Both the position numbers and the translations under genes were made by a program. The notes under the pieces were generated by a model that was given only the letters and a program-made list of their open reading frames with translations, was not told the DNA's origin and did not search any database. Positions 3,624 through 42,706 of a stretch of DNA of 64,000 nucleotides are shown here, piece after piece. The stretch is taken from positions 147,591-211,590 of the forward strand of contig JACQSC010000004.1 of NCBI GenBank assembly GCA_016206155.1, given 5' to 3'. How positions within the stretch are numbered: position 1 is the stretch's first letter; each line of letters starts with the position of its first letter. Source of the stretch: Candidatus Uhrbacteria bacterium (lineage in GTDB: Bacteria; Patescibacteriota; Patescibacteriia; JACQRZ01).

Positions 3624-3680
3624 GAAATGGAAATGGGGTCTGGCTCAATTTCCGAAGGAATTTGTGCCTGATCCCATTTC
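3624..3680 (+). repeat. Copy 2 of the dispersed ~50-nt imperfect-palindrome element, intergenic.
   Basis: AAATGGGGTCTGGCTCAATTTCCGAAGGAATTTGTGCCTGATCCCATTT. Confidence 0.8.
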
Positions 3681-4634: not shown

Positions 4635-5568
4635 ATCGGGATCGTTCTCTTGTCGTAACAAGAACGTCCCACACCACTGGGCAAACGGTTTTCCCGTACC
4701 CTAGCGGTTCCTATAGTGCTTTTTTGAAAAAGCTCGCATCTGGTCGCGAATATGCAGGACAGCATTAAACCCTTCATCAGTAAGATGTTTTTTCTCTTTA
4801 ATCATAAAACATGCTTGACGAAAGAGTGAATAGACATCCTTCTTCTTCCCTTGAAGTTTGTGCTTGTCGAAGAAGGGGATAACAAACTGACAAAGATCGC
4901 GAACACTGCCTACTTTATACTTCGCGTGAGGCGCCCAATCATATCGCTTGTAGTGGAGATCATACAACGATCCGCATCCGATTGTTGCTTGGATGCGTTC
5001 TAATATCTCCCGATCGTCAATGCGTAGTTCAATCTCGAAAAGAGGACGAAGGTCCACTTTTCGTTTCATGGTTGTATGTTTCGATGCACCAATACAGAAA
5101 CATCCTTCGCCATCAACGAATCCAGCGACATAATTGGGGTCGAGCTTTTGAGCACTAAAGGTTCGGTCCTTCTCCGATTGCGTATCGGATACTATGACCT
5201 CTGCTGACTTCTTGCATTGCGTCGACATATCGTTACCGCTCTGTCTTAATTTCTCAGTGTTAGTATACTACAATTTTATAGTACCCCCAAGAAATACAAT
5301 ACAAGATCTCCCTGGGTCATGTCTTGTCCCGTTTTCCTTCATCTCCGGCATTCTTTACATGCGTACGTTTATTAATGAAAAGATGACTTCTCCCTATACA
5401 CGCGGGATCGTCACGTACCCATGCCTCAACAAATGCTCAAGCTGAAAGATGCTACTTTCATTCTCCACATGTATCCTCGCGGATACATGCTATAATTTCG
5501 CTTCAAAGAATCTTTTCTTTCTTTGGTGTGATTTTCACACACTGGCACAAAACACTACCAGGCGCTCC
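4635..5568 (-). mobile_element. 16S intron 1 (~934 nt, at about E. coli position 1391/1392) carrying a single-motif LAGLIDADG homing endonuclease.
   Basis: The exon sequence GACGGGCGGT at 4625-4634 resumes as GTGTACAAAATCTGAGAACGTATTCACCG at 5569. The intervening sequence has no rRNA similarity. Confidence 0.8.
4701..5228 (-). CDS. LAGLIDADG homing endonuclease, single motif (YVAGFVDGEGCF), encoded in 16S intron 1.
   Basis: 175 aa with a canonical LAGLIDADG block near the N-terminus, on the same strand as the rRNA. Confidence 0.85.
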   Translation of the reverse strand: MSTQCKKSAEVIVSDTQSEKDRTFSAQKLDPNYVAGFVDGEGCFCIGASKHTTMKRKVDLRPLFEIELRIDDREILERIQATIGCGSLYDLHYKRYDWAPHAKYKVGSVRDLCQFVIPFFDKHKLQGKKKDVYSLFRQACFMIKEKKHLTDEGFNAVLHIRDQMRAFSKKHYRNR

Positions 5569-5877
5569 GTGTACAAAATCTGAGAACGTATTCACCGCAC
5601 CATGGCTGATGCGCGGTTACTAGCGATTCCGGCTTCATGGAGGCGAGTTGCAGCCTCCAATCCGAACTGGGGTCACTTTTTAGGGATTAGCTCCGTCTCG
5701 CGACTTGGCGACCCGTTGTGGTGACCATTGTAGCACGTGTGTAGCCCAGGGCGTAAGAGCCATGCTGATTTGACGTCGTCCTCGCCTTCCTCCCCGTTAA
5801 CCGAGGCGGTTTCTCGTGAACAATGCAACACGAGATGAGGGTTGCGCTCGTTTGAGGACTTAACCCGACATTTCACA

Positions 5878-5909
<32 letters not shown>

Positions 5910-5985
5910 CTCAGCGTTCCCTTGCGGGCACTTTCCTGTTTCTAGGAAATTCGCTGGATGTCAAACCCTGGTGAGGTTCCTCGCT

Positions 5986-6022
<37 letters not shown>

Positions 6023-6174
6023 AGATTCCCGTCAATTCCTTTAAGTTTTAGCCTTGCGGCCGTACTTCCCAGGCGGGATGCTTAACGAGTTATCTTATGT
6101 AAACGGCACTGAAAGGGTCGATACTTCCAATACCTAGCATCCATCGTTTACGGCGTGGAATACGCGGGTATCTA

Positions 6175-7176
6175 CAATTATTGTTACGCTCCTGACAAAT
6201 GTCAGAGCGACTCGATTTCACTCGAGTTCCTCATATCGCTAATGAGGTTCGGACTATCTCATCACCTCTTGAAATTGAGGAAGTTGATATACGATCGCTG
6301 GCTGCCGATATGATTCAATCATTAGATTGAGAATCGACTGCTTCTCATAATCAAACCAAAACTTTGAATGAAGTGTTGCTGTCACACCCTTCACAAAGCC
6401 GATGCGTTCCTGAAAAAGCCGTATATCCCTTTCCGTCTCAATTTTTATTTTCCTGTCACATGGCACTTCTCGCGCACGAATACCATTCCACCGAAGAAGG
6501 GTAAGGTAATCCGTGCGAAGTTGTTTATGATTACATGCGAGAAAAATCGTCCGAATAAGCCGGAAGGTTTTTCTCTCATTCTTCCCTCGCCGAAATGCGG
6601 GATATAAACTAACTCCTCCATCGCAACTAAAAGCTGCCTGAAGAAAGTTACGATCATATCCACTGCTTCTCAGCTGAAGCACTGGAATGGTGGCATGCGG
6701 TATACTTCCGTCGGAGAATGACAATGTCCGAAATCCTCCGAACCGCTGAACCAAAGTATTACCGATCTCTTTCGAGTTAACAATCGCCTTAAAGAGACCG
6801 TCTCGCGTCATTCAGAGACGTACTCTCTGTGCATCAAGTGAAAATGCGCCGATCATACTTGATCGAAAAAGATCAACTAAACTTTTTGATTTACAGGCAA
6901 AGTATATTCGCCAACTTTCCTTCTTCTTTGGGGAAACACATCCGTCGGTATAAAGCAAACCGAGAAGTGTTGCCAGGTCTTTTCCAATTGAGGTGCCCGA
7001 CATATAGTCTCTGAGGAGCCCCTTCTTTTTAATAAGGGTTTCCTGCTGATTGACTGTACGAAACGCATTGTTACTCCTAGTATTGTACCATGAGTAGCGT
7101 TCGATTTCCAGTTGTTCCAGCATATAGTCGGGTTTTTTTCCTCTCGTCACCGAGAGGGTGGACCAGATACCATTTG
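6175..7176 (-). mobile_element. 16S intron 2 (~1.0 kb, in the 785-806 region) carrying a double-motif LAGLIDADG endonuclease ORF.
   Basis: Exon GGGTATCTA ending at about 6174 resumes as ATCCGCTTCTCTCCCCACGCTTTCG at about 7177. Confidence 0.8.
6254..7150 (-). pseudogene. Double-motif LAGLIDADG homing endonuclease split by an in-frame TGA at 6812-6814. Motif 1 is LLGLLYTDGCVS and motif 2 is LQAAFSCDGGVS.
   Basis: ORFs 6812-7150 and 6254-6811 are contiguous in the same frame, separated only by TGA. Each half carries one LAGLIDADG motif. Confidence 0.6.
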
Positions 7177-7573
7177 ATCCGCTTCTCTCCCCACGCTTTC
7201 GTCCCTGAGCGTCAGAACTGTTCCAGTACCCTGCCTTCGCTTTTGGTGTTCCTGCCGATATTAAAGCATTTTACTGCTACACCGGCAATTCCAGGTACCT
7301 CTCCCAGCCTCTAGCTCGATAGTATCGTGCGCGGTCCTGATGTTGAGCACCAGGATTTAACACACGACTTACCGGGCCGCCTGCGGACCCTTTACGCCCA
7401 ATAAAACCGGATAACGCTTGGACCACTCGTATTACCGCTGCTGCTGGCACGAGTTTAGCAGGTCCTTATTCGTACGGTACACTCAGAACTTGTTCCCGTA
7501 CAAAAGCAGTTTACGCCCCGAAGAGCTTCTTCCTGCACGCGGCGTCGCTCCCTCAGACTTTCGTCCATTGGGG

Positions 7574-7604
<31 letters not shown>

Positions 7605-7901
7605 TAGGACAGTGTCTCAGTTCCCATGAGGCGGGTCATGCTCCCACACCCGCTACTCGTCGTAGCCTTGGTAGGCCGTTACCCTACCAACTAGCTGATG
7701 AGGCATAGGCCCCTCTTCAAGCGGATTGCTCCTTTACATGAGAATGTCTTATGACCCCTCATGACTATCGGGAATTAGCTCGCCTTTCGGCTAGTTGTGC
7801 CCGACTCGAAGGTAGGTTACCAATGTGTTACTCACCCGTTTGCCACTAGCGCTATCCAGTATTGCTACCGAATAACGCCCGTTCGACTTGCATGCCTTAG
7901 A

Positions 7902-7940
<39 letters not shown>

Positions 7941-8225
7941 TGTTTATGAGTTTGTTGACTCTTGTTTTCTTTGTTGAAGTTTCAATGAAACTTCAGGAAT
8001 TGACTTGCACGTATACAGCACGATCCCGCTTGCGCAGTATCGTTCCGTATACAAATTTATCGCCTTTTTACTGTCAAAGAACTGTTCCTTTTTCCACTGT
8101 TTAGTGTAGAAAAAAGAGAGAAGCCATATTCTTGTAGACGGCCTCACTCTTTTTTCCAAAACCGCTTTACTGTATTGTAAAAGGGGAGTGTTTGAAGGCT
8201 GTTTTGTTGATAATTTACAGCCCGT

Positions 8226-16023: not shown

Positions 16024-16701
16024 ATGCCGTTTAAAAATCGTGAAGAGGCTGGAATGCGCCTGGCGGAAAAACTTCTCGCATACAAAGATAATCCGTATGT
16101 CACCGTTATCGCGCTGCCGCGCGGTGGCGTGGTATTGGGTCGCAAGATAGCTGACGCGCTTCACGCGCCGCTCGACATTGTCGTCCCAAGAAAATTGGGC
16201 GCTCCGGACAATGAAGAGTATGCCATCGGTGCGCTCACAGAGGACGGGGGTGTGGTGTGGAACGAACTCGAAAAAAAACGCTATGGCGATGAAATACTCG
16301 CAATAATAGTGAAGCGTGAACGAAAGGAAGCGCTGCGCCGGCTTTCGATCTATCGAAAGGGATTGCCGTCCCGCGTTCTCAAAAATAAAATCGTCGTCCT
16401 TGTTGATGACGGCGTTGCAACAGGCTACACAATTCGCTCGGCGATAAAAACGATTGAAATCGAACAACCTGAAAAAATCATCGCTGCGCTTCCGGGGGGT
16501 CCCGAAGATACCATCAGTCTTCTCAAGAAAGAGGTGGATGAGGTTATCGTCCTTGAGATTCCTCAATTCTTTGCCGCGGTTGGGCAACTCTATGAGGACT
16601 TTCCACAAGTAACGGATTCACAAGTCATTGCGCTATTGGGGAAATGGGGTCTGGCTCAATTTCCGAAGGAATTTGTGCCTGACCCCATTTCCCCGTTATA
16701 A
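16024..16701 (+). CDS. Phosphoribosyltransferase-domain protein (COG1926-like). The C-terminal 17 aa are encoded by a dispersed repeat copy.
   Basis: PRTase core VLVDDGVATGYTIRSAI (PRPP-binding motif). The C-terminus ...KWGLAQFPKEFVPDPISPL derives from the repeat at 16642-16690. Confidence 0.7.
   Translation: MPFKNREEAGMRLAEKLLAYKDNPYVTVIALPRGGVVLGRKIADALHAPLDIVVPRKLGAPDNEEYAIGALTEDGGVVWNELEKKRYGDEILAIIVKRERKEALRRLSIYRKGLPSRVLKNKIVVLVDDGVATGYTIRSAIKTIEIEQPEKIIAALPGGPEDTISLLKKEVDEVIVLEIPQFFAAVGQLYEDFPQVTDSQVIALLGKWGLAQFPKEFVPDPISPL
16642..16690 (+). repeat. Copy 3 of the dispersed ~50-nt palindromic element, forming the 3' end of the PRTase CDS.
   Basis: AAATGGGGTCTGGCTCAATTTCCGAAGGAATTTGTGCCTGACCCCATTT. 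Confidence 0.85.
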
Positions 16702-16706
16702 CCCCT

Positions 16707-17612
16707 ATGAACGTATACACCTTACCCAACCCGCGCCCGCTCGAAATCAGCATCGCAAAAAAACTGGACAAAGCATTCGCGCGCAACACTGAATGGCGGC
16801 AATTCACCAACGGTGAATGGTTTCTCCGCATTACCAAAACCGCATCGAGTGTTATCGTCCTCGGACGCACAGAGCCACCGGCCGACAATCTCCTCCAAAC
16901 GCTCTTGCTTCTTGATACCCTCAAGAGAAACGGCGCAAAAAAAATCATACTCGTTGTGCCGTACTTCGGATACGGTCGCCAGGATCGTGTCGTGCGCAAT
17001 GGCGACCATCTCCCCGCCGATCTTTTTCTCACCCTATTCAAAACATGCGGGGCAAATCGTGTCATTACCGTTGATATTCATAGCCAAGCGACAAAAAAAA
17101 GCTCGTCACTTCCATTATATACCGTGGACTTCATGCCCGCTGTTGCCTCGTTCATGAAAAAAGAATCTTTTACAAAAGACGCCTTCACCATCGTCTCTCC
17201 CGATCATGGAGGTCGGCGACGGGCAGATCAACTGCGCGATCTTCTCAGCCCATCCTCCTCAGTCTGTTGGCTAAAAAAAATCCGTGACCCCAAAACAGGG
17301 GCTGTTCATTCTCGCGAACTCTTTGGCATGAAAAGAGGAACAACCGCACTCATTGTTGATGATATTCTTGATACCGGCGGCACCATTGCGCAAGCGGTTG
17401 GCGTACTAAAAAAACACGGCTTTACTACCTTTTATCTTGCCTCCACCCATCCGATTTTTTCCGCGCGCGCAACACAAACCATTCGCGCCCTTCGTTTCAA
17501 AAAAATAGTTACCTCAAACACTCTGCCGCTTTTATCAAGCACACAAAAAACCCTGCCGATCGTTGTGATCGATATCGCGCAGGAACTCACCGGCGCGATA
17601 ATGAACCGATGA
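16707..17612 (+). CDS. prs: Ribose-phosphate pyrophosphokinase (PRPP synthetase).
   Basis: PYFGYGRQDR, the DIHS block, and the PRTase-type C-terminal motif LIVDDILDTGGT. Confidence 0.85.
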   Translation: MNVYTLPNPRPLEISIAKKLDKAFARNTEWRQFTNGEWFLRITKTASSVIVLGRTEPPADNLLQTLLLLDTLKRNGAKKIILVVPYFGYGRQDRVVRNGDHLPADLFLTLFKTCGANRVITVDIHSQATKKSSSLPLYTVDFMPAVASFMKKESFTKDAFTIVSPDHGGRRRADQLRDLLSPSSSVCWLKKIRDPKTGAVHSRELFGMKRGTTALIVDDILDTGGTIAQAVGVLKKHGFTTFYLASTHPIFSARATQTIRALRFKKIVTSNTLPLLSSTQKTLPIVVIDIAQELTGAIMNR

Positions 17613-17614
17613 AG

Positions 17615-17660
17615 TGGTGTCAGGTACAAATTCCTTCCGGAAATTGAGCCAGGCACCATT
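17615..17660 (-). repeat. Copy 4 (degenerate, opposite orientation) of the dispersed palindromic element, between prs and the plsC-HAD gene.
   Basis: GGTGTCAGGTACAAATTCCTTCCGGAAATTGAGCCAGGCACCATTT. Confidence 0.6.
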
Positions 17661-19094
17661 TCACTTCTCGTGAATAATGCGCATTCCCAAGTTCTTACAG
17701 CGCGCACCGAATGATTTTTTTGGATTGACCAGAGCCGCATGTCCGACGCCCCTCAACATGGCATAGTCGTGATAGGAGTCGCCATACGCATAACTTTTAG
17801 AAAGATCAAGGTTGTGTTTTTTTGCCAGCTCTATCATTTTCTCTCGTTTGTATTCATCTTTCATCAGATGGCCTACCACCTCGCCGGTAAATACTCCTTT
17901 TTCCTTTTCAAGTATGGTTCCAAAACATGGAACGCCAAGCAGTTTTGAAATCGGATCGAGAATCTCTTGGGGCTCCTCACTTATGATGAACACCGCGTTT
18001 CCTTTTTCTTGATGGGAGCGGACGAGCTCAAGCATCTGAGGATAAAACAGCTCTTTTTTGTGTTTTTTCAGGTATCCATAAAATCCACTTAAAAATTCAG
18101 TAGCGCGAATGCCTTTCAACATTCGAATGGCGGCGAGATAAAAGTACCCGTGTTTAAGCAGCATTCGCTTTACGAGCAGACGAGGAATTTTCTGGAAATT
18201 ACCCGCGCTGACGTGCGCCATGAGATATCGCACAACCAATTTTTGATAGATATTTGAGCGCGTCAGCGTGTCGTCAAGATCAAAAAACGCAGCCCTCTTT
18301 CCGTGAGGAATGTGGGGAATACTCTGCTCTGAAAAATATGACTTGGGAAGGTGCTTTTTTATTCTTCTCTCCAAATACACCACATCCTCCAAAACATTTG
18401 AAGAAACATCCCACAGCGCAACCGGGGGCATAATCGTTGCCTCGAGGTGAACCGGATGAATCGTCACATGGTGGGTTGGAAAAAACGTATCGACATGCGC
18501 CAAGGTAATGGGGACAACCGGCGCACACGCCTCAAGCGCGATTTTAGCAACCCCGAGGTGAAAAGGGAGAAGCCGTTTTTTAAACTCGCGGCGCCCTTCG
18601 GGAAAAATAAGAAGCGACGTTCCACTTTTAAGCGTCGTGACACATGCGGCGATAGCTTGCTCGGCATGAATCGTTTCCTCGTACCTCAGCTCCTCGAACA
18701 CATCGCGCGAAACGCTAATGCACCCCATATGCGCAAACCATCGCCGAATGATGGGGGGGAACTCATCAAAAGGCGCCGTTATGGCGGCAAAGGGTCGGCG
18801 AACAATATGTAAAATGACGAGTGGGTCAAGATAGCTCTGGTGGTTTGCGGCAAACACGACCGGACACTCCGGTATCTTTTCGCACCCCGTAACCTTGATT
18901 CGAACACGAACGAGAAAAAACAGCGTATCAATTAAATGAAGAGAGAGCTTTCGCCACGCCTCAATATTTTGTGCGCGTTTACTGTCTCCAAACCGTATGT
19001 GTCCGTACAGAAAAAAAAGATAGAGTAGCGCCAAAAAAATCGTGTAAAAATACACGCTATAGATAACGCACTTAAGCTGGTGTGTCGCTCTCTT
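17661..19094 (-). CDS. Fusion protein: N-terminal 1-acyl-sn-glycerol-3-phosphate acyltransferase (PlsC) domain plus C-terminal HAD-superfamily (subfamily IB-like) hydrolase domain.
   Basis: Acyltransferase motifs NHQSYLD (HX4D) and FPEGRR, then the HAD motif I FFDLDDTLT. The track ORF start extends upstream, and its first codons overlap the cyclase gene. Confidence 0.7.
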   Translation of the reverse strand, partial: KRATHQLKCVIYSVYFYTIFLALLYLFFLYGHIRFGDSKRAQNIEAWRKLSLHLIDTLFFLVRVRIKVTGCEKIPECPVVFAANHQSYLDPLVILHIVRRPFAAITAPFDEFPPIIRRWFAHMGCISVSRDVFEELRYEETIHAEQAIAACVTTLKSGTSLLIFPEGRREFKKRLLPFHLGVAKIALEACAPVVPITLAHVDTFFPTHHVTIHPVHLEATIMPPVALWDVSSNVLEDVVYLERRIKKHLPKSYFSEQSIPHIPHGKRAAFFDLDDTLTRSNIYQKLVVRYLMAHVSAGNFQKIPRLLVKRMLLKHGYFYLAAIRMLKGIRATEFLSGFYGYLKKHKKELFYPQMLELVRSHQEKGNAVFIISEEPQEILDPISKLLGVPCFGTILEKEKGVFTGEVVGHLMKDEYKREKMIELAKKHNLDLSKSYAYGDSYHDYAMLRGVGHAALVNPKKSFGARCKNLGMRIIHEK

Positions 19095-20763
19095 CATTAT
19101 CTTTAAATCCTCTGAATGAATATACTGTCTGCTCACCCATGTTCTTCAACACTATTACCTTTTCCTCAACCAACACCACCTCCTTCACGAACGCGTATGC
19201 ATTTGGACCGATCAGAATTTCGTTCACGCCCGCGGTTTGTTCGAGTCGTGCCGCAAAGTTAATTGTCTCGCCCAAGAAATCCCAGATGCGATCGTCGGCT
19301 GGTCCGATTTCACCGGCAATAAAGTCGCCATACTCGATACCGATGCGAATGTCCCAGCCCATCTCCCGTACAAGTATACCAATTTTTGTCGCCGCCTCCA
19401 ATGCGTTATGCGTCAAAACCGGGTAATCCTCGTTTTCCTTGTATCCGCCAAACACCGCCATTATGCCGTCCCCCATGTATTTATAGACCCACCCGTTGCG
19501 CGAACGAATAACGGTGTTTGAAATTTCGCAGTACCGATTCAGTTCCACCATCATCCCGCCAAAATCCTCTGTTGAATGCACGCGCTTACTAAACCCCACC
19601 AAATCTGCAAAAAAGACCACGCCGCTATGGCGCTTTGGCGCGAGCTTGTGAATGGTCATGCGCGATACCAGCTCGGTCGGCAGATGGGAGCTGAGGATTG
19701 CGGTAAGTTCATTCTTCAGGCGTTCAATTTCCTTCTTCTCTTCTGAAATAACTTTGTTGCGCTGACGCACCGCATCCTCAAGCTCTTGCGAGTATCGTTG
19801 AAAATAACTCGCGCGATCCTCGATCTCTTGAAGATAATTATCGGCGTGTTCGGGCCGTACGGCGCGCAATTTTTTTACCAATCGCTTGTGAAACGGCTCA
19901 TGTTGCCACTGCATGCGTAAAATAAAATAGGGCGCGTTATAAATCTGCCCCCGCTCTAGAAGTAAATAATTTTTATACCGATAATCTTTTGTAATCAAAA
20001 TGCCGCGATGCTCATCTGCTTCATGCGGGTCGCGATGCGATCCAACGTAATGAAAGTCACTGCCGACTTTTTCCTTTACGAGTCCGACAACCTTTCCGTG
20101 CGGCTCGCCCTCGACAAAAAGCATATCATCTCTGATCTCGGAAAGAATTGAAAACTGCTCGCGCAAAAGGCGCACAACGTCATACTCAAGAAGAATCTCC
20201 TGCACATCGGCGTGCGGTTGTTTCCAGATTCGCGGAATGCCCGCGATTACGCCTTTTACAATCGGCCCCGAGTGAAAGTCGTGCACGGGATCAATGTGAT
20301 CGCGAAATTTTACTTTAAAAAAAGCGTGCTCGCGGCCCAGATCGACAACATGGATATCTTTTGTCTTGTTAAAATATTGGTTGTACTTTGGCACGCGCCT
20401 AATCAGTACCTTTGGGTCGGCAAAAACCGAGGCGAGCATGCGCTTCATAACCTCAAGCATGCCCAAGCCGCCTTCAGACGTTGAGGATGCACCGATTTCG
20501 TAAAACACAGACGGGTCATTGTCGTGCAAAATGCGCGCGCGTTTGGTAATTTCCCGAAACACCGAGAATGGGATCCAATTGTCAGGATTCGTCAAATAGC
20601 TTTCGGGGTACCCCAAACCGGATAAAAGAGCATCCGGTGAGATGCTCCTTTTCTTGCAATATTCTACGATTAAATTCACGTTCCGCGTCGAAACGCTCAG
20701 TGGTTCATCGTTATCATTGTCATCCTGGCGAAGGCCGGGATCCAGTCCTTTTTGTAATCCCAT
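19072..20763 (-). CDS. Class III adenylate/guanylate cyclase with a ~350-aa N-terminal domain of unknown function.
   Basis: C-terminal catalytic core FADLVGFS...YMGDGIMAVFG...INFAARLE. The N-terminal region carries no recognisable motif. Confidence 0.75.
   Translation of the reverse strand: MGLQKGLDPGLRQDDNDNDEPLSVSTRNVNLIVEYCKKRSISPDALLSGLGYPESYLTNPDNWIPFSVFREITKRARILHDNDPSVFYEIGASSTSEGGLGMLEVMKRMLASVFADPKVLIRRVPKYNQYFNKTKDIHVVDLGREHAFFKVKFRDHIDPVHDFHSGPIVKGVIAGIPRIWKQPHADVQEILLEYDVVRLLREQFSILSEIRDDMLFVEGEPHGKVVGLVKEKVGSDFHYVGSHRDPHEADEHRGILITKDYRYKNYLLLERGQIYNAPYFILRMQWQHEPFHKRLVKKLRAVRPEHADNYLQEIEDRASYFQRYSQELEDAVRQRNKVISEEKKEIERLKNELTAILSSHLPTELVSRMTIHKLAPKRHSGVVFFADLVGFSKRVHSTEDFGGMMVELNRYCEISNTVIRSRNGWVYKYMGDGIMAVFGGYKENEDYPVLTHNALEAATKIGILVREMGWDIRIGIEYGDFIAGEIGPADDRIWDFLGETINFAARLEQTAGVNEILIGPNAYAFVKEVVLVEEKVIVLKNMGEQTVYSFRGFKDNEESDTPA
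20721..20748. repeat. GC hairpin mini-repeat ATCCTGGC-GAAG-GCCGGGAT. A related copy is at 23675-23700.
   Basis: 8-bp stem with a GAAG loop. It lies within the 5' end of the cyclase CDS and encodes GLDPGLRQDD. Confidence 0.5.
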
Positions 20764-20817
20764 AGCGTTCGTATCATACCTCCGTTATGCGCCAAAGTAA
20801 ATACGCGCCCAAGCGGG

Positions 20818-20872
20818 TTGACATTCCGTAAGGGGGGGCAGAATGGGTGTGTTCGCGCGGAAAGGGAGAGCT
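20818..20872 (+). promoter_or_regulatory. Conserved promoter/5'UTR module of small-protein cassette 1: TTGACA...GGGGGGGCAGAATGGG...GGAAAGGGAGAG before the ATG. It is about 90% identical to 22568-22623.
   Basis: Two copies in the window share a ~65-nt block including TTGACA and an SD-like GGAG. Confidence 0.6.
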
Positions 20873-21094
20873 ATGGAAACAATCAAGCGGATCGTCCGGG
20901 ATTTGTCCGGTGTGGTAGAAATTCTTCGGGAAAACGCTAGCCCAATAGAGCGATACAGCATGTATCGTGAAGTGAAGGCCATCGCGGCCGCTCTCGTGCT
21001 CAATGCAGAGTACGAGATGGACGAGGCCGGGCGTGAGGATCCGGCTGGAGTCGCAATACTCAGGAAGGCGCAGTGTTACCACCCTCACTGTTAG
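20873..21094 (+). CDS. Small hypothetical protein of 73 aa (cassette 1).
   Basis: Starts METIKRIVRDLSGVVEILREN..., downstream of the conserved UTR with GGAG 8 nt upstream, and followed by a conserved terminator. The antisense ORF 20774-21139 was rejected. Confidence 0.55.
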   Translation: METIKRIVRDLSGVVEILRENASPIERYSMYREVKAIAAALVLNAEYEMDEAGREDPAGVAILRKAQCYHPHC

Positions 21095-21110
21095 TCGCGA
21101 ACAACAAAGA

Positions 21111-21150
21111 GGGACGGATCGCCATTGTGTATCCGCCATTCAAAACTTTC
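21111..21150 (+). terminator. Conserved 3' module of cassette 1: hairpin GGACGGAT-N11-ATCCGCC followed by TTCAAAACTTTCTG. It is the homologue of 22881-22920.
   Basis: About 55 nt that is near-identical between the two cassettes, starting immediately after the stop codon (CGCGAACAACAAAGA...). Confidence 0.55.
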
Positions 21151-21249
21151 TGTTATCATCCAGGGCGCAGTCGAGAGACCTCCAGTGCTTTCCGTCTCAA
21201 CGATTTTCTCCAGAAAACACTCCTTGTAATACGAGGGCAATAAAATGGT

Positions 21250-21915
21250 TCATTGTTTTTTAAACATTTCCTTTATCCTTTTCTTCTCATCAGCAAACTG
21301 CTTTTGGTTCAGATTGAGTTCAGGGCATTCGACAGAGGTATCGAGAAGTGTAAGAATGCCAGAGATAAGAAACTCCTGCCCGAGCGCGCGTGTATGGTTT
21401 TTAAAAAGTGAGCCATCAAACGATGGATGAAAGAGAATGCTGAAAATATCAAGCTCATCTTTTTTTCCTTTCAGAGATCCTTTTCGGTCCTGATAGGCAT
21501 GACACTTCAGCAGGATCATTATTTCAATCTGCGGCACCGTGAATCCATCGACCGACTGCGTATGATCGCGAATAAAAGAAACGGGAATACCAAGATTGGA
21601 CCAGCCAGGAACATAGATGTCGATATCAAACCCCTCGTGCGGAATTTCATATTTTTTGAGTCGTTCATTTTTCTGAACGCCATAGCGGGTTTTTAAATCC
21701 GCGAGCGTATCAAATTCCACAATAATATCGATATCCTTTGATTTTAATGATCGAGTGTGAACGTACACCGCCCATCCGCCGATGAGAATGAAAAAAATCT
21801 GCTGTCTCAGCTCCTGGAGTACGATGAAACTTTTATCGGTGATGTTCTGATGCCAAAATGCCATAGGATTAGGAAAGTAACTCTTCAAGCTTTGGGAGGA
21901 TATCCTTTGCATACC
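21250..21915 (-). CDS. AbiEii-like nucleotidyltransferase toxin (DUF1814-like), tentative.
   Basis: Pol-beta-type NTase motif GGWAVYVHTRSLKSKDIDIIV. About 220-250 aa. It lies directly downstream of, and overlapping, an HTH regulator gene, which is the canonical abiEi-abiEii order. The start is uncertain. Confidence 0.55.
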   Translation of the reverse strand, partial: GMQRISSQSLKSYFPNPMAFWHQNITDKSFIVLQELRQQIFFILIGGWAVYVHTRSLKSKDIDIIVEFDTLADLKTRYGVQKNERLKKYEIPHEGFDIDIYVPGWSNLGIPVSFIRDHTQSVDGFTVPQIEIMILLKCHAYQDRKGSLKGKKDELDIFSILFHPSFDGSLFKNHTRALGQEFLISGILTLLDTSVECPELNLNQKQFADEKKRIKEMFKKQ

Positions 21916-22468
21916 ACTCAGGCGCGTTCCATATATCAGCAAACACTTGCTCAAGAAGCGGTTGGGGATAGCGAGAAAACAGCGGGTCCTTTTCAATAAC
22001 AAAAAAATTGGGGGCTAATCCACTATTCTTTTTCGAAACCCATACGCGTACACGATCACGAATCTCTGCACAGGTGTTTCGGTCGGCATACACATAGACA
22101 TGATCGTATTCCGTCGGCATCGCCGAGAGAAGAAATTGTGTCGCGCTATAGAGCCCAAAAGCGATCGCCGGTGGCATCGCCGCCTCAATGTCAAAGGAAC
22201 CTTTCTCAAGGCGCAGTGAAAACATCATGTCTTTTATCAACGAGCGCTCGGTCGCAAAAAGATAGAGAAGCTTTCTATAATCCTGTAGCACAAAAAAGCG
22301 CCCTGTCACACGGATGATTGACGTATCGCGAGCACTTTTAAGGGCATTAAAAACCGTGCTTGTTGAAATACCCAACGTGCTGGCAAGCTCTTTTTGGGTA
22401 AATCGAATCTGCCCATGTACCCGTTTTTGATAGAGAATCTCTCTATAAACAGCACATTTTTTATTCAT
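21869..22468 (-). CDS. AbiEi-like antitoxin/transcriptional regulator with an N-terminal winged HTH, tentative.
   Basis: HTH segment FTQKELASTLGISTSTVFNALK. 199 aa. It overlaps the downstream NTase gene. Confidence 0.5.
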   Translation of the reverse strand: MNKKCAVYREILYQKRVHGQIRFTQKELASTLGISTSTVFNALKSARDTSIIRVTGRFFVLQDYRKLLYLFATERSLIKDMMFSLRLEKGSFDIEAAMPPAIAFGLYSATQFLLSAMPTEYDHVYVYADRNTCAEIRDRVRVWVSKKNSGLAPNFFVIEKDPLFSRYPQPLLEQVFADIWNAPEWYAKDILPKLEELLS

Positions 22469-22530
22469 TTCGATTTTTTATCACAATTTATATACCCATT
22501 TCGATAATGCTCGAAATGAAATAATTTGTC
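22469..22530. promoter_or_regulatory. Candidate AbiEi operator: three copies of CATTTCGA(T/G), two direct and one inverted, in the abiEi promoter region.
   Basis: TCATTTCGAT at 22471, CCATTTCGAT at 22503, and CTCGAAATGA at 22517 (reverse complement). AbiEi proteins are known to autoregulate through inverted repeats. Confidence 0.35.
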
Positions 22531-22567
22531 AATACGACCAGTGGATTTGCCCAAACCTCTAGCAGTG

Positions 22568-22623
22568 TTGACATTCCGCGAGGGGGGGGCAGAATGGGGG
22601 TGTTCGCGTGGAAAGGAGAGGTT
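22568..22623 (+). promoter_or_regulatory. Conserved promoter/5'UTR module of small-protein cassette 2.
   Basis: GTTGACATTCCGCGAGGGGGGGGCAGAATGGGGGTGTTCGCGTGGAAAGGAGAGGTT then ATG. Confidence 0.6.
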
Positions 22624-22860
22624 ATGAACCGACATAAACAAGGATTGGGGGGACTTCGAATTCTTTATGAGGAGCTGGGACGGCTCCTCAGCCCGGATGA
22701 GATTCCGGTCAATAAAGAGGAATTTTTCATGAAAATAGCCGACTCAGCGGACGCCCTCCGGGTGTCTGCGCGTGGTCTGGCAAACGCCGGTCTCACCGAA
22801 GGTCAAATCATCACACGGATCGCAAGAAGTGCGTGGATGGAGGTTTTCGGGAAGAAATAA
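22624..22860 (+). CDS. Small hypothetical protein of 78 aa (cassette 2). It is a divergent paralogue of the cassette-1 protein.
   Basis: Starts MNRHKQGLGGLRILYEELGRLLSPDEIPVNKEEFFMKIADSADAL.... It has weak positional similarity to cassette 1 (L.G...IL.E...SP.E), and identical flanks. Confidence 0.55.
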   Translation: MNRHKQGLGGLRILYEELGRLLSPDEIPVNKEEFFMKIADSADALRVSARGLANAGLTEGQIITRIARSAWMEVFGKK

Positions 22861-22880
22861 GATGCGCGAACAACAAAGAA

Positions 22881-22920
22881 GGGCGGATCGCCATCGTGCA
22901 TCCGCCCTTCAACACTTTTT
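22881..22920 (+). terminator. Conserved terminator of cassette 2: GGGCGGAT-cgccatcgtgc-ATCCGCCC followed by TTCAACACTTTTT.
   Basis: 8-bp GC stem plus a T-run. Confidence 0.6.
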
Positions 22921-23015
22921 ACTCAATTTTTCCTATTCGTATATTACCGGCAAAGTCGGTTCTCCATATCTTGATTCGCTGACAAAAAATGCGCCGAGAA
23001 CGAACAAACACCATC

Positions 23016-23546
23016 TTATCGCTCTCCGTGGAGCAGTCGCTCAAACGCCTCCATATTCCCCAAAGCATCGTGAACGGGGTTGTGATCATGGGGTGTTCTG
23101 CGCAGTTTTTTCCATGACGACGCATCCGTGATATCGCCAACAAGGCCGGCGTAAAAATCTCCTATACGCCGCGCGGAATGGCCGAAAGGATTTTTGCCAA
23201 GCGTCCGCCAGAAACCATCATTGATCCATTGCCAGTCAAAGGCGGGGTTGTCACTGATAAAAATCGGACGTCCTTCCTTTTTTCCAAATACTGTTTTTTC
23301 ATCGCTTATTCTTTCTATAACAACAGGAATCGCCTGATTATGTTCAGCGGGTCTTGTTCGTGCGAGCACGCCGTGAAACTTCTCTTGGATCAAAACGTTT
23401 CGCGCAAGCTGGCTGAGGAACTTCAAGGAGATTTTCCAGGAACAGCCCATGTATATTTGTGCGGATTGCGTTTGAAAGAGAAAAGAAACACGGCTGTTTT
23501 CAAATTTTTTCACTGTAGCCGCTAAACGACTTCTTCCAAATAACAC
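23016..23546 (-). pseudogene. DEDDh (DnaQ-like) 3'-5' exonuclease fragment. Exo II and Exo III motifs are present, but the Exo I DxE motif is absent.
   Basis: DNPAFDWQWIND (Exo II-like) and HNPVHDALGN (Exo III H-x4-D). There is no N-terminal DxE block, so it appears N-terminally truncated. Confidence 0.45.
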
Positions 23547-25300
23547 TCTTTGCAGTAGACGCGCTCATCCAAAGCAGGGTCCCATGTCGTCTGGAATGGA
23601 CGCTTACACGGGGTCTGGCTCAATTTCGCTTGCGAATTTGTGCCTGACCCCATTTCCTGCCCGCCCCCGCTCTCATTCCGGCGAAGGCCGGAATCCAGTC
23701 CAGTTTTCAACTAATGCTGGCTGTGCGTCGCTTCACCACAATCACACGTCCCTGACCACAGCTGTTTTGGATTTCTCTTTGCCATTCGTGCCTTGTGGCG
23801 TTCAAGAAAACTTTTGTCTGGGACATGGATATTCAGGCGACGATAAAATGCCAGCTCTTGTTTGATATATTTGAACTTCTGGCCGGTGTCTTTATCTGCA
23901 AGAACTCTGTCACACCACGAGTCGTCGACGTCTTTGATGCTATCGGGAATTTCGGTTGCCTCGCCTCGCTTGATATCGGCAGAATCGTCCCAGCGAAATC
24001 CTTTTTCCAGTGCCTTCTCTTTTGAGAGGGGCATAAAAATCCCAGCATTGGATGTATTGTACGCAAAGGGACTGTACTCGGGTGGGAAGAACTCGCCCCA
24101 TTCGCCGGTTTCCTTCATATGCTCTATGAGTTTAGTGCGGAGCTTCTCATATTCATCTTTGGTGTATTGCTTGTTGAGGATGCAGTACTGGCCCTTTTTC
24201 AAGTTACTGCAGCCAAAACAATTTTGAATCGAGCGACAGAAATAGCAATAATCTACCTCAGCGCACCCCTCCATGACCCCCCAGCTCCACCGTATATTAT
24301 ACGAACTAAACCCGCAGACAGCCGAATAATAAAACCGGGAACTACCCTCCCCGCACTCAAACGTTTCATAACAATCCTTTATCGGTAAAAACGCTGCTTC
24401 ACAATACTTTGAATCCTCCACGCGAAACCCGTCATAACATTCAATCGCATTTTTTGAATTGATGAGATAATCACCAGTGCAATCAACATTACTCATCCCG
24501 TGCATATATTGCTTGGGAAATTTCTTTTTGTGCTCATCAAACTTTTCCGCCCACTCACGCACAACTGATCGGCGGGAAAGGTCGGCTCCCTGCAAACGTT
24601 TTTCGTATTCCTCCTTTGAGATCCTCTCGTTAAACCAATAGTACTCGGCATTTTTCAAATTCGCGCACCCAAAACAGTTTATACAGTTGGAGAGATTATA
24701 TCCGAAAATACATTCATTTGAGTCCTGAACATTTTGGCAATAGAAACATTTGTAGCATTTCAAACAGTCGATACATTCATAACACAGCTCTGATTCGCGC
24801 ACCTTCAAGCAGTCGACCGCGTCTTTACTGTTTTGAAGCGTATATGAATAATACGAATCTTCATTCACGTCGCTGTCAAAAACCAAATAACAGTTCTTTA
24901 CCGCGCTGCAATAGTTAATGTAATCGCTGTTTACGATATTCCCTTCAATAACAAAACGTGATGCGTGAGGGACGCTCCTATCGAGGTCTGCGAACTGCTC
25001 AAAAAATGGGCGAGAAAAATCAATATCGCGTGCGAAGGAACGCGCGTCCCATGAGTCGCCCCACCAGGCGGCATTGTTGTATACCGGGAATGGTGTACCC
25101 TCCGGGTACATTGCAAGTATCTGTTTTCCCGTGAGGTCGCATTTTCTTGGATAGAGCAATAATTCATTTTCCCACATGAGCTGAACCCGCCGCCGGCACG
25201 GATGGCACCGTCGTGGCGGAGGAACATCAAACGAACGAAAAAACTTGTGGTCTTTCTCATCAAATGAGAATTCTTTTTTACATTGAATGCAGATATTCAT
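23522..25300 (-). CDS. Cysteine-rich paralogue A of the unknown-function family. Its C-terminal zinc-ribbon region is disrupted by an in-frame TAG (23711-23713) plus two repeat insertions, so it is possibly a pseudogene.
   Basis: Collinear with paralogue B from MNICIQCKKEF to ...LWSGTCDCGEATHSQH, then a stop. The same frame continues LKTGLDSGLRRNESGGGQEMGSGTNSQAKLSQTPCKRPFQTTWDPALDERVYCKECYLEEVV, matching B's C-terminus. Confidence 0.6.
23609..23655 (-). repeat. Copy 5 of the dispersed palindromic element, inserted in-frame in the C-terminal region of paralogue A.
   Basis: GGGGTCTGGCTCAATTTCGCTTGCGAATTTGTGCCTGACCCCATTT. Confidence 0.8.
23675..23700. repeat. GC hairpin mini-repeat ATTCCGGC-GAAG-GCCGGAAT, adjacent to copy 5.
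   Basis: Perfect 8-bp stem, homologous to 20721-20748. Confidence 0.5.
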
Positions 25301-25370
25301 AGTACCGATACTATACATCTGCTTATGGCTGATGTCTATGTAGTCCTTCGCGTACTCTTTGAGCAACACC

Positions 25371-40317: not shown

Positions 40318-41409
40318 AACATCGGAATCGTTGGCTTGCCCAACGTAGGAAAATCAACACTGTTTAAGGCGTTGACAAAAAAACAGGTCGATATTGCAAA
40401 CTATCCGTTCTGCACCATTGATCCCAATGTTGGTGTTGTGAAGGTGCCGGATGAACGGCTTGCACGATTGGCGGAACTCTCGCATTCGGCAAAGATTGTT
40501 CCGACGAGCATTGAATTTGTTGATATCGCCGGACTCGTAAAGGGTGCGTCTCAAGGAGAGGGGCTAGGCAACAAGTTTCTTTCACACATTCGCGAAGTGG
40601 ACGCGATTGCGCACGTTGTGCGCGTGTTCCATGACAAAAACATCATTCATGTTGCCGGCGAACCAAAGCCAATTGAAGACATCGATGTTATTAATCTTGA
40701 ACTGATCTTTGCCGACATGGCGACGCTTGAAAAGAGAATTGGCGCAACAAAGAGCCAGATGAAAAGCGGCAAAACGCGTATTCTCGAGGAGCAACTTTGT
40801 ATATACGAGAAGGTATATACATGCCTTGAGTCGGGTGCGCCAGCAAACAGGCTTGATCTTTCCGATGAGGAAAAAGAGACAACGCGCGACCTTCATCTTT
40901 TGACGCTCAAGCCATTTCTTTACGTGCTCAATGTTGACGAGGAAATGGGGTCTTGCTCAGTTTCCCGAAGGGAATCCGCGCCTGACCTCATTTCAGAGAT
41001 TGAGCAAAGACTCGCGGGCTATACAATCGTGGCGCTCTGCGCTCAAGCCGAGGCCGATATGGCCGACCTTTCGGACGAAGAGGTGCGCGAGCTTGGAATG
41101 AAGCGAACAGGCCTTGACACGTTTATTACCGTCGCTTACAAACTTCTAGACCTGATTACATTTTTGACAACCGGGCCGGACGAAACCCGTGCGTGGACCA
41201 TTCGTAACGGGACAAAGGCGCCGCAAGCGGCAGGCGTGATTCATACCGACTTTGAAAAAGGATTTATCCGTGCTGAAACAATTAACTGGAAAGACCTTGT
41301 CGACGCCGGCGGTGAAGTTGCCGCAAAAGAGAAGGGGCTTATCCGTCTTGAAGGGAAAGAATATATTGTTCGCGATGGCGACGTGATGGTCTTTCGGTTC
41401 AGCGTGTAA
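40318..41409 (+). CDS. ychF: Ribosome-binding ATPase YchF. It carries an in-frame insertion of the dispersed repeat (encoding EMGSCSVSRRESAPDLIS) at 40943-40993.
   Basis: MNIGIVGLPNVGKSTLF G1 motif, a C-terminal TGS domain, and an insertion between conserved blocks. Confidence 0.85.
   Translation, partial: NIGIVGLPNVGKSTLFKALTKKQVDIANYPFCTIDPNVGVVKVPDERLARLAELSHSAKIVPTSIEFVDIAGLVKGASQGEGLGNKFLSHIREVDAIAHVVRVFHDKNIIHVAGEPKPIEDIDVINLELIFADMATLEKRIGATKSQMKSGKTRILEEQLCIYEKVYTCLESGAPANRLDLSDEEKETTRDLHLLTLKPFLYVLNVDEEMGSCSVSRRESAPDLISEIEQRLAGYTIVALCAQAEADMADLSDEEVRELGMKRTGLDTFITVAYKLLDLITFLTTGPDETRAWTIRNGTKAPQAAGVIHTDFEKGFIRAETINWKDLVDAGGEVAAKEKGLIRLEGKEYIVRDGDVMVFRFSV
40943..40993 (+). repeat. 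Copy 6 of the dispersed palindromic element, in-frame inside ychF.
   Basis: AAATGGGGTCTTGCTCAGTTTCCCGAAGGGAATCCGCGCCTGACCTCATTT. Confidence 0.75.
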
Positions 41410-42706
41410 CTTTTTCAAACACAAACAATTCGCGGGCGACACGAGCATCGGGTCTGGAAATGACAAGAGAGCCGCGCTCGGTTACGCCCGAAAGAACGCG
41501 ACGCAGAGAGTCTGGAACCGTTACGTTTATAAAGCCTTGCTTCATCAGCGCGTTGAGGCAGGGAATATGTCGTTGCCGGGAGTCGGCCATCCAAACTGGG
41601 AAAACAATCACAACGCGACCCGCGCGCGCGAGCGCCTCGTGAAATGAGCGGAAGCTTTGAATATAGAGATCGCAGAGCGCATCAATTTCTTTTTCAGAAA
41701 CATGTTGGTGGCGCGCTGAAAGCGCTGGTCCCAGCGTTGGCTCAGTGACGATCGCACCGATTGAGCGCTTTGGAAAGCACGACGCGAGTTTTTGCGCGTC
41801 ACAGTGCTTTACGGATACGCAAACGGGGTCAGGCACAGATTTTGCAGCAGCAAAAACTGAGCCAGACCCCGTTTGAGCCAGACCCCATTTCTTAAGCCAC
41901 GAAATATTCTCTTTTGTCGCACCGACGTTCTTCTCATCAATATCGCTTCCTGATACATTGGTATATTCAAGCAGCAGCGCCTCCTGCAAGACAGTCCCAA
42001 GTCCACAAAACGGATCAAGAAGCGACGCATCTTTTTCGGCCCTCGCGAGATTAATCATGATGCGGGCAAGCTTTGGGGGGAGGAGGCCGGTTTTCATGTC
42101 TCGATGCGGACGGCCGTAATCACGGCGCGCATATTCTTCAAATTCCTGCACCGCGGCGGTGATGCCGATGTCGATCGTATCATTATCGATCAACAAAACG
42201 TATTCAACGTTCGGCTCTGTCACGAGATGATTTTTTTCAACAACAACCGATGACAGGGCTGTTGCGCCGTGCTGTGGAGCGACAAAACGCGCAGAAACGC
42301 CATGTTCCCGCAGACACTTTTTAAGAGCAATTCCTTCTCTCTGGATCCAAAGCGCGATGCGACGCGCTTCATTTCCCTTGAGCGGTTTTTGTGATACGCT
42401 GTATGCACTGACGCCAAAGGTTATTCGTTCGTGTGCGGCAGTCGATCGTCCCAAAAGATCGTTCGTGATATATGCGGCAGCGCAAGAAAAATCTTTTTTT
42501 GTTGAACCCATGACCCTGCCACCCTTTATGGCTCCGCCAAGACGATGGATGAGGGGCACAGTATCAAGAACACCATCAAAGGAAAATGGTATTGCCTCAC
42601 TTCCGGCGCGATCAAGAGCGAGCGACCCGCCGTTATGTGAGAGGACGGCGCATAACTCAAGTAATGAAAGTGAGGGAAGCCGTCCCGGAATAAGGAAGTA
42701 GTTCAT
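41399..42706 (-). CDS. THUMP-domain RNA methyltransferase (UPF0020/Trm11/RlmL-like). It carries an in-frame insertion of the dispersed repeat at 41824-41890.
   Basis: Class I SAM motif DPFCGLGTV. The internal segment KWGLAQTGSGSVFAAAKSVPDPV is encoded by the repeat. The start is probably the ATG at 42704-42706. Confidence 0.7.
   Translation of the reverse strand: MNYFLIPGRLPSLSLLELCAVLSHNGGSLALDRAGSEAIPFSFDGVLDTVPLIHRLGGAIKGGRVMGSTKKDFSCAAAYITNDLLGRSTAAHERITFGVSAYSVSQKPLKGNEARRIALWIQREGIALKKCLREHGVSARFVAPQHGATALSSVVVEKNHLVTEPNVEYVLLIDNDTIDIGITAAVQEFEEYARRDYGRPHRDMKTGLLPPKLARIMINLARAEKDASLLDPFCGLGTVLQEALLLEYTNVSGSDIDEKNVGATKENISWLKKWGLAQTGSGSVFAAAKSVPDPVCVSVKHCDAQKLASCFPKRSIGAIVTEPTLGPALSARHQHVSEKEIDALCDLYIQSFRSFHEALARAGRVVIVFPVWMADSRQRHIPCLNALMKQGFINVTVPDSLRRVLSGVTERGSLVISRPDARVARELFVFEKVTR
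41824..41890 (-). repeat. Copy 7 of the dispersed palindromic element (with a partial duplication), in-frame inside the methyltransferase gene.
   Basis: Reverse complement GGGGTCTGGCTCAAACGGGGTCTGGCTCAGTTTTTGCTGCTGCAAAATCTGTGCCTGACCCCG. Confidence 0.8.

Follow-up and report, generated by a model that had tools for sequence, protein, structure and literature searches.

A conserved frame of putative promoter, leader and stem-loop around unrelated small open reading frames at a cyclase locus of Candidatus Uhrbacteria

How can two small genes share almost identical non-coding flanks and no detectable similarity in the open reading frames (ORFs) between them, and what changes the genes while the flanks are kept? 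The question is raised by a 64-kb stretch, referred to here as the window, of a metagenome-assembled genome (MAG) from Candidatus Uhrbacteria, very small bacteria of groundwater, in which two cassettes (W1 and W2, holding ORF1 and ORF2) lie in direct orientation and bracket a minus-strand gene pair (21250–22468) for a helix-turn-helix (HTH) protein and a nucleotidyltransferase (NTase). We favour, with a probability of roughly 0.55, a reading in which the flanks form a conserved expression chassis within a toxin-antitoxin-rich island, and in which the cargo, small helical proteins, changes both by diverging fast and by being replaced by way of the flanks.

The upstream blocks of the two cassettes (approximately 57 nt) are about 90% identical and contain a 34-nt core that is 94% identical, with the shared string GTTGACATTCCG..GGGGGGGCAGAATGGG.GTGTTCGCG.GGAAAGG. 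The downstream blocks, which extend over some 54–62 nt, are 89% identical over 54 nt (21096–21149 against 22865–22918). A pattern search allowing up to 3 mismatches found only these 2 copies in the window, where shuffles lead one to expect 0, and a covariance model of the downstream block likewise gave exactly 2 matches. At the 5' side the likeness between the cassettes ends directly after GTGTTCGCG, and it returns beside the stop codon, at CGCGAACA; the two motifs are inverted repeats of one another. Since the similarity is bounded in this way, the blocks are not a piece of a larger segmental duplication, an alternative raised in an earlier note on this DNA that had been made from the sequence alone; chance was ruled out together with it. 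The central observation of that note, near-identical flanks around divergent ORFs, was confirmed by the unambiguous alignment of the blocks and by a BLASTP comparison of the ORFs that gave no alignment at E ≤ 100.

Further comparison of ORF1 with ORF2 was also negative: a global alignment was no better than shuffles (p = 0.31), and the similarity of the interior DNA was not significant (z = 1.6). Hidden homology, sought in addition with shuffle-calibrated alignments, with profile hidden Markov models (HMMs) of the ORF families described below and in six frames, was rejected, as ORF1 gave nothing and ORF2 reached only p ~ 0.04. Both proteins are orphans. Among 5.8e9 (5.8 billion) clustered proteins ORF1 matched only itself, as did ORF2 in a word-indexed search and a full HMMER scan of 1.8e9 representatives. 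Neither has a Pfam, PADLOC or PHROGs family, and searches of NCBIfam and of PDB sequences gave only single sub-threshold matches (for ORF1, one in NCBIfam and nothing usable in the PDB). Both look like real genes, given their codon-position pattern (GC1>GC2<GC3), the spacing of their Shine-Dalgarno (SD) sequences and the helical models obtained with AlphaFold2, which predicts four helices for ORF2 from a single sequence (pLDDT 83.6, pTM 0.71) and three helices for ORF1 (pLDDT 68). Fold searches with these models returned generic helical matches only and were uninformative. The coordinates of both ORFs agree with the NCBI calls (Table 1).

When the core of the upstream block was run against 185,579 species genomes, no genome gave more than one match, and a related Uhrbacteria MAG (L002) emerged with the same site beside a class III adenylate cyclase gene. 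There the cyclase gene (83% nucleotide identity) is followed by an upstream block, a third, unrelated ORF of 96 aa and a downstream block, forming a single cassette with no NTase-HTH module. Cyclase orthologues at 77–84% identity were used as anchors for syntenic loci and yielded more cassettes, and a diverged one in L014 was found with the downstream-block covariance model. The collection amounts to 10 distinct cassettes in 8 genomes of one narrow clade (the window and 7 related): W1, W2, L002, L013, L019, L015, L014, L018a, L018b and L011, the last with a deletion variant, L012. Each related locus holds 1–2 cassettes, all at one locus, and by their Pfam labels the genes of the flanking operon in related loci also include an acyltransferase/HAD gene. 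Another genome-contig match (L003), which lies in high-GC DNA in an IS110 context, was put down to chance. When both JGI metagenome scans and two of eight viral-contig scans (IMG/VR) were run with the block patterns, the matches were due to chance and fell within unrelated genes, and BLAST against phage and plasmid collections gave nothing beyond chance matches.

In all 10 cassettes the ORF is open, at 73–99 aa, and an SD sequence stands at the right distance. The proteins have GRAVY values of -0.84 to 0.14, and the ORFs are GC-rich (52–62%, GC3 54–74%) compared with 42–48% for neighbouring genes. Shuffle-calibrated Smith-Waterman scores and profile HMMs were used to set ORF classes. Family A consists of L002, L013, L019 and L011 (z 3.3–41), joined by L018a on its profile score (14 bits, with 0/500 shuffles as high), and it always adjoins the cyclase. 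Family B consists of L015 and L018b (z 4.7), with W2 and L014 as marginal members (p 0.01–0.04; W2 scored p = 0.04 with the profile of L015 and L018b, a marginal tie to the position-2 class), and it is always distal, beside toxin-antitoxin-type modules. Any relationship between families A and B is below detection, and ORF1 is related to no other ORF class in any reading frame. The same flanks thus enclose at least 3 ORF classes without detectable sequence relationship, and the finding of the window extends to related genomes. A separate observation concerns L012, whose cyclase protein is identical to that of L011 and in which the 3' arm and the 3' half of the ORF are lost through a deletion of approximately 150 nt (L012 525–774 against L011 5546–5886); this suggests either that the small gene is dispensable or that the assembly is in error.

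We compared the constraint on the blocks with that on the neighbouring cyclase gene. Between genomes the cyclase is 75% identical in nucleotides and 42% identical at 4-fold sites, with dS > 1, so that synonymous sites are saturated. Over the same comparisons a 42-column core of the upstream block is 87% identical and the downstream block 76%. Neutral sites are saturated and yet the upstream core is 87% identical; the flanks are therefore under strong constraint, and by these identities the non-coding blocks are at least as conserved as the adjacent, strongly constrained cyclase gene. Family-A ORFs have a nonsynonymous rate 4–7 times that of the cyclase (dN 0.3–1.1 against 0.07–0.16). The contrast between conserved flanks and variable coding sequence noted for the window accordingly holds over eight genomes. 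Diversifying selection, which had been offered as one explanation, was not demonstrated: in family A, the one family that could be aligned, dN/dS is 0.26–0.67 with saturated dS, which indicates weak purifying selection.

Alignment of 9 type-A upstream blocks from the 8 genomes shows four invariant elements, GTTGA.ATT, an A followed by a G7–8 tract, CAGAAT and GTTCGC, while the remaining spacer and the segment next to the ribosome-binding site (RBS) are variable and the G-tract switches between 7 and 8 residues across copies. A promoter scan returned TTGACA-16-CAGAAT in cassette 2, with 10/12 matches; cassette 1 was not returned because its spacer is 15 nt and the scan needs 16–18 nt. We read the upstream block as a predicted sigma-70-type promoter with an invariant G-tract, followed by a short leader that would begin at the presumed transcription start site. 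The leader was also suspected of being a conserved structured RNA. No conserved local fold was found in the upstream block (RNAalifold over the 9 blocks, -4.7 kcal/mol with no covariation), and neither block matches an Rfam family, whether at gathering thresholds or at E ≤ 1. What is conserved at the RNA level is, rather, a long-range pairing of the 5' with the 3' part and a stem-loop on the 3' side that covaries. As a separate observation, a conserved hairpin with a 12–15-bp stem (CCCCGTTAGAGA ... TCTCTAACGGGG) abuts the -35 box in two genomes (L002 2160–2228; L018 575–650, minus strand), where its right arm continues into GGGGTTGAC; the window has a remnant of it (CTCTAGCAGTGTTGAC) before cassette 2.

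The stem-loop lies in the downstream block, after the 3' arm CGCGAACA and an A-rich linker. Over 9 copies, 96.3% of the cells in the hairpin columns pair, which drops to 50% or less once the partners are slid, and compensatory double changes occur at 3 pairs (8 cells). Five cells are G-U pairs on the sense strand, which would favour that strand and a role at the RNA level. The stem-loop is GC-rich and is followed by a U-run, and the complementary strand is likewise U-rich past the stem, so a bidirectional terminator that also serves the convergent gene is plausible from the sequence. The possibility that the downstream block encodes a read-through peptide was rejected, since its frame relative to the stop codon varies among cassettes and stops intervene.

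Partition-function folding of full-length predicted mRNAs connects the two blocks. The first 7–10 leader nucleotides are predicted to pair with nucleotides directly past the stop codon in 9/10 cassettes. In 8/8 type-A cassettes, whose interiors are unrelated, this 5'-3' stem joins GUGUUCGCG to CGCGAACA with pair probabilities of 0.6–1.0. In L011, which has a type-B promoter, the stem is compensated (UUGUC.CGG / CCG.GACAA, p ~ 0.9). Across the stem columns 81% of cells pair, against at most 50% for slid controls; support from covariation is modest because most pairs are invariant. The 3' arm begins 0–14 nt after the stop codon, and the SD sequence stands a few nucleotides beyond the 5' arm. Such a clamp may stabilise the mRNA or couple its translation. 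In the mRNAs of type I toxins such as hok and aapA1 the extreme 5' end pairs near the 3' end and encloses a small ORF, and the 5' end of the cassette mRNA is likewise predicted to pair with the 3' region. In contrast to type I toxins, the cassette proteins are hydrophilic helical proteins and not membrane peptides, and the clamp leaves the SD sequence free. An antisense RNA gene is not evident here, nor did a conserved antisense promoter stand out in the blocks, although no search was aimed at either.

Type-A promoters stand before family-A ORFs in L002, L013 and L019 and before family-B ORFs in L015 and L018b, and type-B promoters stand before family-A ORFs in L011 and L018a, while W1 combines a type-A promoter with an RBS segment typical of family-B, or position-2, cassettes. 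Promoter type, ORF class and hairpin version are thus combined in several ways, in disagreement with the cyclase tree; L018 and L019, for example, have cyclases that are 91% identical and cyclase-adjacent cassettes with different promoter types. For divergence within family A, the comparison of L002 with L013 gives 58% identity between the small proteins and 85% between the cyclases. The cyclase of the window is 88% identical to that of L002 and W1 has no similarity to family A, which argues for replacement rather than divergence.

The comparison with L002 also delimits the replaced segment. Where L002 has one family-A ORF, the window has ORF1, a downstream block, the NTase-HTH pair, an upstream block and ORF2, and the exchanged interval is bounded by GTGTTCGCG and CGCGAACA. 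The flank upstream of the L002 cassette matches that of cassette 1, and its downstream block and flank match those of cassette 2 (98% identity, also for the block itself). A Logan contig from another sample (L001/L009, SRR12113433_543542; L001 below) is identical to the window over 1690 nt, from ORF1 through the HTH gene, and has 11 differences, all inside the upstream block. Its length of 1752 nt is exactly one unit from upstream block to upstream block, and its ends have no terminal overlap and would join plausibly. The unit could be circular or tandem, or the contig could come from a strain whose promoter allele has been converted. The idea that the direct copies mediate excision or duplication of the module between them is supported in one respect, in that the close relative L002 has one cassette and no module; within the source population neither an excision variant nor an empty site was seen, the Logan contigs L008, L010 and L022–L024 all matching the window at 100% identity.

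The module between the cassettes had been described as AbiE-like, a label that proved weak. The HTH protein matches Pfam HTH_Crp_2 (E = 7.9e-7, 29.4 bits against a cut-off of 27) and PADLOC AbiEi only at E = 0.031 over residues 9–61; its last 130 aa have no domain assignment. The NTase gives sub-threshold matches to Pfam DUF6036 (E = 0.018, 15.3 bits against a cut-off of 23.6) and to PADLOC AbiEii (E = 0.018, 12.9 bits), besides weak similarity to Lnu-type NTases, and has no PF08843 match in the Pfam scan. Like AbiE type IV toxin-antitoxin/abortive infection systems, the module has the HTH gene first and the NTase gene second, with an 8-nt overlap, and an inverted repeat in its promoter; unlike them, neither protein here reaches the AbiEi or AbiEii family threshold. 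The inverted repeat (22497–22518) has perfect 8-bp arms over the predicted -10 of the HTH-NTase operon, near a minus-strand promoter-like site (22532–22504), and is likely to be an autoregulatory operator of this module, unrelated to the cassette blocks. Related genomes have other modules. L018 has two cassettes around a four-gene module (a RelE/ParE-like pair, an RNase T-like gene and a 173-aa ORF), the cassette of L015 is divergent from a true AbiEii gene (PF08843, E = 4.5e-16) at the equivalent place, which is not homologous cargo, and that of L014 is divergent from an MNT-HepT fusion. The different module of L018, like the lack of a module in L002, supports the earlier note in this respect. 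Given this varied toxin-antitoxin-type cargo, the cassettes mark a toxin-antitoxin-rich variable island.

On the reading that we favour, the chassis would serve one or two small, soluble, all-helical proteins (73–99 aa) beside the class III adenylate cyclase operon, and would have three parts. The first would be the sigma-70-type promoter, with TTGACA, a 15–16-nt spacer ending in the G7–8 tract, and CAGAAT. In the second, the short leader, GUGUUCGCG would pair with CGCGAACA in a stem that closes the folded mRNA, so that the start and end of the ORF are brought together. The A-rich linker, GC-rich stem-loop and U-run would make up the third. Strong purifying selection would hold these non-coding parts, and the ORFs would turn over by two routes, very fast divergence and the replacement of whole segments when homologous recombination takes place in the conserved flanks. 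In the window, the resident family-A ORF of the closest relatives would have been replaced by the segment from ORF1 to ORF2, including the NTase-HTH module; given such a replacement, the NTase-HTH pair would be cargo between chassis copies and not a demonstrated functional partner.

Several points weigh against this reading. A spacer of 15–16 nt is short for a sigma-70 promoter, and with its U-run 8 nt past the stem the stem-loop is not a canonical intrinsic terminator. L018a lacks the clamp, the score of the 5'-3' stem was reached by 14/500 shuffles, and the double changes in it come from single sequences. Recombination is deduced from mosaic patterns only, with no intermediate seen. The cassettes number only 10, in one narrow clade, and the metagenome, viral, phage and plasmid searches added none. 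Finally, the shared length, helicity and high GC of all the ORFs would also fit one very old, fast-diverging family.

The closest analogue, judged by organisation, is the PeSL (promoter-early stem-loop) cassette of T4-type phages. PeSLs consist of a sigma-70-like promoter and a GC-rich stem-loop terminator flanking small ORFans (Arbiol et al. 2010, PMC2839356; Comeau et al. 2014, PMC4122927). Where related phage genomes differ by an insertion, a deletion or a replacement, these motifs mark its limits, and recombination between motifs has been proposed to shuffle the genes; the stem-loops often contain poly-G/poly-C tracts, and some 50 copies per phage genome form a composite intergenic motif in hyperplastic regions (PMC2839356, PMC4122927). 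The Uhrbacteria cassettes similarly have a predicted sigma-70-like promoter and a covarying stem-loop around orphan ORFs, the replacement between L002 and the window is bounded by block motifs, and promoter types and ORF classes reassort. They differ in that 1–2 copies occupy one chromosomal locus of a candidate phyla radiation (CPR) bacterium, that promoter and stem-loop are separate blocks, and that a 5'-3' mRNA clamp is predicted.

The alternative that survives best, though we consider it rather improbable, is that the cassettes are ordinary paralogues and orthologues: one tandem-duplicated small gene with a weakly constrained protein, its flanks kept by purifying selection and perhaps gene conversion, with no replacement. 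Besides the uniform length, helicity, solubility and GC-richness of the 73–99-aa ORFs, it accommodates the low identity within family A, down to 22–38% where the cyclases are approximately 80% identical, and the marginal scores of W2 and L014 with the family-B profile. The hairpin version tracks the genome clade and not the position of the cassette, as within-genome homogenisation predicts. W1 is more difficult to explain in this way, because it occupies the family-A position with no similarity in any frame, where approximately 60% identity would be expected at the rate of that family, and because it bears the RBS segment of position-2 cassettes. The reassortment of promoter type and ORF class against the cyclase tree, and the confinement of the 11 differences of L001 to the upstream block beside 1690 identical bases, also argue for exchange.

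A dedicated mobile cassette system, in which the unit excises as a small circle and integrates at the blocks with the GTTCGCG/CGCGAAC inverted repeat as crossover or recognition site, is in our view unlikely. It would account for a variable segment bounded exactly by the inverted repeat, for direct copies flanking cargo in two genomes with different cargo in each, and for a contig (L001) of one repeat unit with plausibly joinable ends; PeSL-flanked ORFans are moreover found as mini-circles in phages phi1 and RB49 (PMC2839356). However, no recombinase, integrase or transposase domain was found among the scanned neighbours (adenylate cyclase, NTase, HTH and exonuclease-like proteins), each genome has only 1–2 copies at a single locus, and the G-U pairs in the stem favour a role in RNA. 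As for L001 itself, its ends do not overlap, and no single crossover would yield its upstream block from those of the window. At similarly long odds is the bolder proposal that the blocks form a dedicated gene-swapping device in a CPR chromosome, with a promoter-ORF-stem-loop-toxin-antitoxin unit excising as a circle of approximately 1.75 kb and re-entering at another copy, and the clamp a previously undescribed post-transcriptional module that would act as a standard frame for any captured small ORF.

Integrons were considered as a specific form of mobility. In common with them, the locus has unrelated ORFs of promoterless size between conserved repeats, frequent toxin-antitoxin cargo and GTT.../...AAC inverted motifs at the boundaries. 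An attC identity was rejected, as the boundaries CGCGAAC / GTTCGCG misfit RYYYAAC ... GTTRRRY, with C and not R at core position 4. Unlike an attC site, the downstream hairpin has no 3' GTT core, and the inner upstream and downstream blocks are not complementary and form no bulged attC-like hairpin; unlike integrons, there is no integrase in the scanned neighbours and no array, and each cassette has its own promoter.

We regard it as very improbable that the product of the locus is RNA, with the 3' block acting as a 3'-UTR-derived or dual-function small RNA (sRNA; seed AACAACAAAGAAGG plus terminator), or the transcript acting as a whole structure, and the ORFs incidental or secondary. The 3' elements that give rise to 3'-UTR-derived sRNAs such as CpxQ and SroC run from the stop codon, contain a terminator hairpin and are more conserved than the coding sequence. 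The 3' element of the cassettes likewise starts at the stop codon, contains a covarying hairpin and outconserves the coding sequence; its conserved single-stranded stretch, unlike that of these sRNAs, is SD-like and not anti-SD. The ORF RNAs are also unusually structured (z < -2.8 against dinucleotide shuffles in 5/10), although high fold z-scores could stem from complementary Glu and Leu codons. The reading frames, which are open in all ten cassettes, each with a well-placed SD, their codon-position GC periodicity, dN/dS values below 1, the confident protein model for ORF2 and the lack of an Rfam match all argue against an RNA product. A retron-like non-coding RNA was dismissed, since the ORFs are coding and there is no reverse transcriptase in the vicinity.

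In the tiny genomes of CPR bacteria, cis-regulatory RNA and gene acquisition are to our knowledge almost unstudied, and we know of no such promoter-leader-terminator frame described there. The locus offers a strongly conserved non-coding frame with a predicted 5'-3' mRNA clamp in this lineage, and what appears to be modular shuffling of unrelated orphans in the same frame, as with the PeSLs of T4-type phages, on a cellular chromosome. The covariance model of the downstream block can serve as a marker of the toxin-antitoxin-rich variable island in Uhrbacteria. Should the small proteins turn out to confer specificity or immunity, diversification of these symbionts at the level of strains could be explained by this locus. 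Table 1 lists the features of the cassettes and of the module between them.

Table 1. Positions in the window of the two cassettes, their sequence elements and the intervening module.
Feature	Position	Strand	Basis or remark
Cassette 1 upstream block	20817..20872	+	Alignment of 9 type-A blocks
Cassette 1, -35 TTGACA	20818..20823		
Cassette 1, G7 tract	20832..20838		
Cassette 1, -10 CAGAAT	20839..20844		
Cassette 1, 5' arm UGUUCGCG	20850..20857		
Cassette 1, SD AAGGGAGAG	20862..20870		
ORF1, 73 aa, HY623_02870	20873..21094	+	Soluble, predicted three-helix, orphan
Cassette 1 downstream block	21096..21157	+	Covariance model, 66.5 bits
Cassette 1, 3' arm CGCGAACA	21096..21103		Followed by A-rich linker
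Cassette 1, stem-loop	21109..21141		Two stem pairs mismatched
NTase-like gene, 208 aa, second in module	21250..21876	-	Sub-threshold Pfam/PADLOC
HTH protein gene, 199 aa, first in module	21869..22468	-	Pfam HTH_Crp_2
Perfect inverted repeat CATTTCGA-N6-TCGAAATG	22497..22518	.	Read from sequence
Cassette 2 upstream block	22567..22623	+	Promoter scan and alignment
Cassette 2, -35 TTGACA	22568..22573		
Cassette 2, G8 tract	22582..22589		
Cassette 2, -10 CAGAAT	22590..22595		
Cassette 2, 5' arm UGUUCGCG(U)	22601..22609		
Cassette 2, SD GGAAAGGAGAGG			
ORF2, 78 aa, HY623_02885	22624..22860	+	Soluble, predicted four-helix, no relatives at normal thresholds
Cassette 2 downstream block	22865..22926	+	Covariance model, 82.3 bits
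Cassette 2, 3' arm CGCGAACA	22865..22872		Followed by linker ACAAAGA
Cassette 2, stem-loop	22878..22910		Followed by CAACACUUUUUAC

Other repeats and genes of the window were recorded alongside the cassettes. A repeat, GTCATCC.GGCGAAGGCCGG.ATCCAGTCC, occurs at 20720–20753 and 23673–23706 in copies that are 85% identical; one falls within the first codons of the cyclase gene and the other within those of a 62-aa ORF, both on the minus strand. Similar sequences are present at the 5' end of the cyclase of L002 and L013 and, in L015, downstream of its cassette. Palindromic intergenic repeats of approximately 52 nt (GGAAATGGGGTCTGGCTCAATTTCC ... GGAATTTGTGCCTGACCCCATTTCC), REP- or MITE-like, are found at 1055–1145, 3629–3680, 16640–16691, 17611–17662, 23602–23658, 40939–40975 and 41820–41875, and another follows the cassette of L002 at the end of its contig (2650–2700). 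The gene downstream of cassette 2 (23016–23546, minus strand) is exonuclease-like (PADLOC effector exonuclease, E = 8.6e-11), and further on are tandem paralogues of a 552-aa protein rich in Cys (23711–25369, minus strand, and about 25.9–29.4 kb). Intron-bearing 16S genes are typical of CPR bacteria, and the 16S rRNA gene of the window (5505–7947, minus strand) is interrupted by a group I intron, with a group II intron D1–D4 fragment just downstream (coordinates 6229–7186 and 5166–5248, minus strand, are also listed here).

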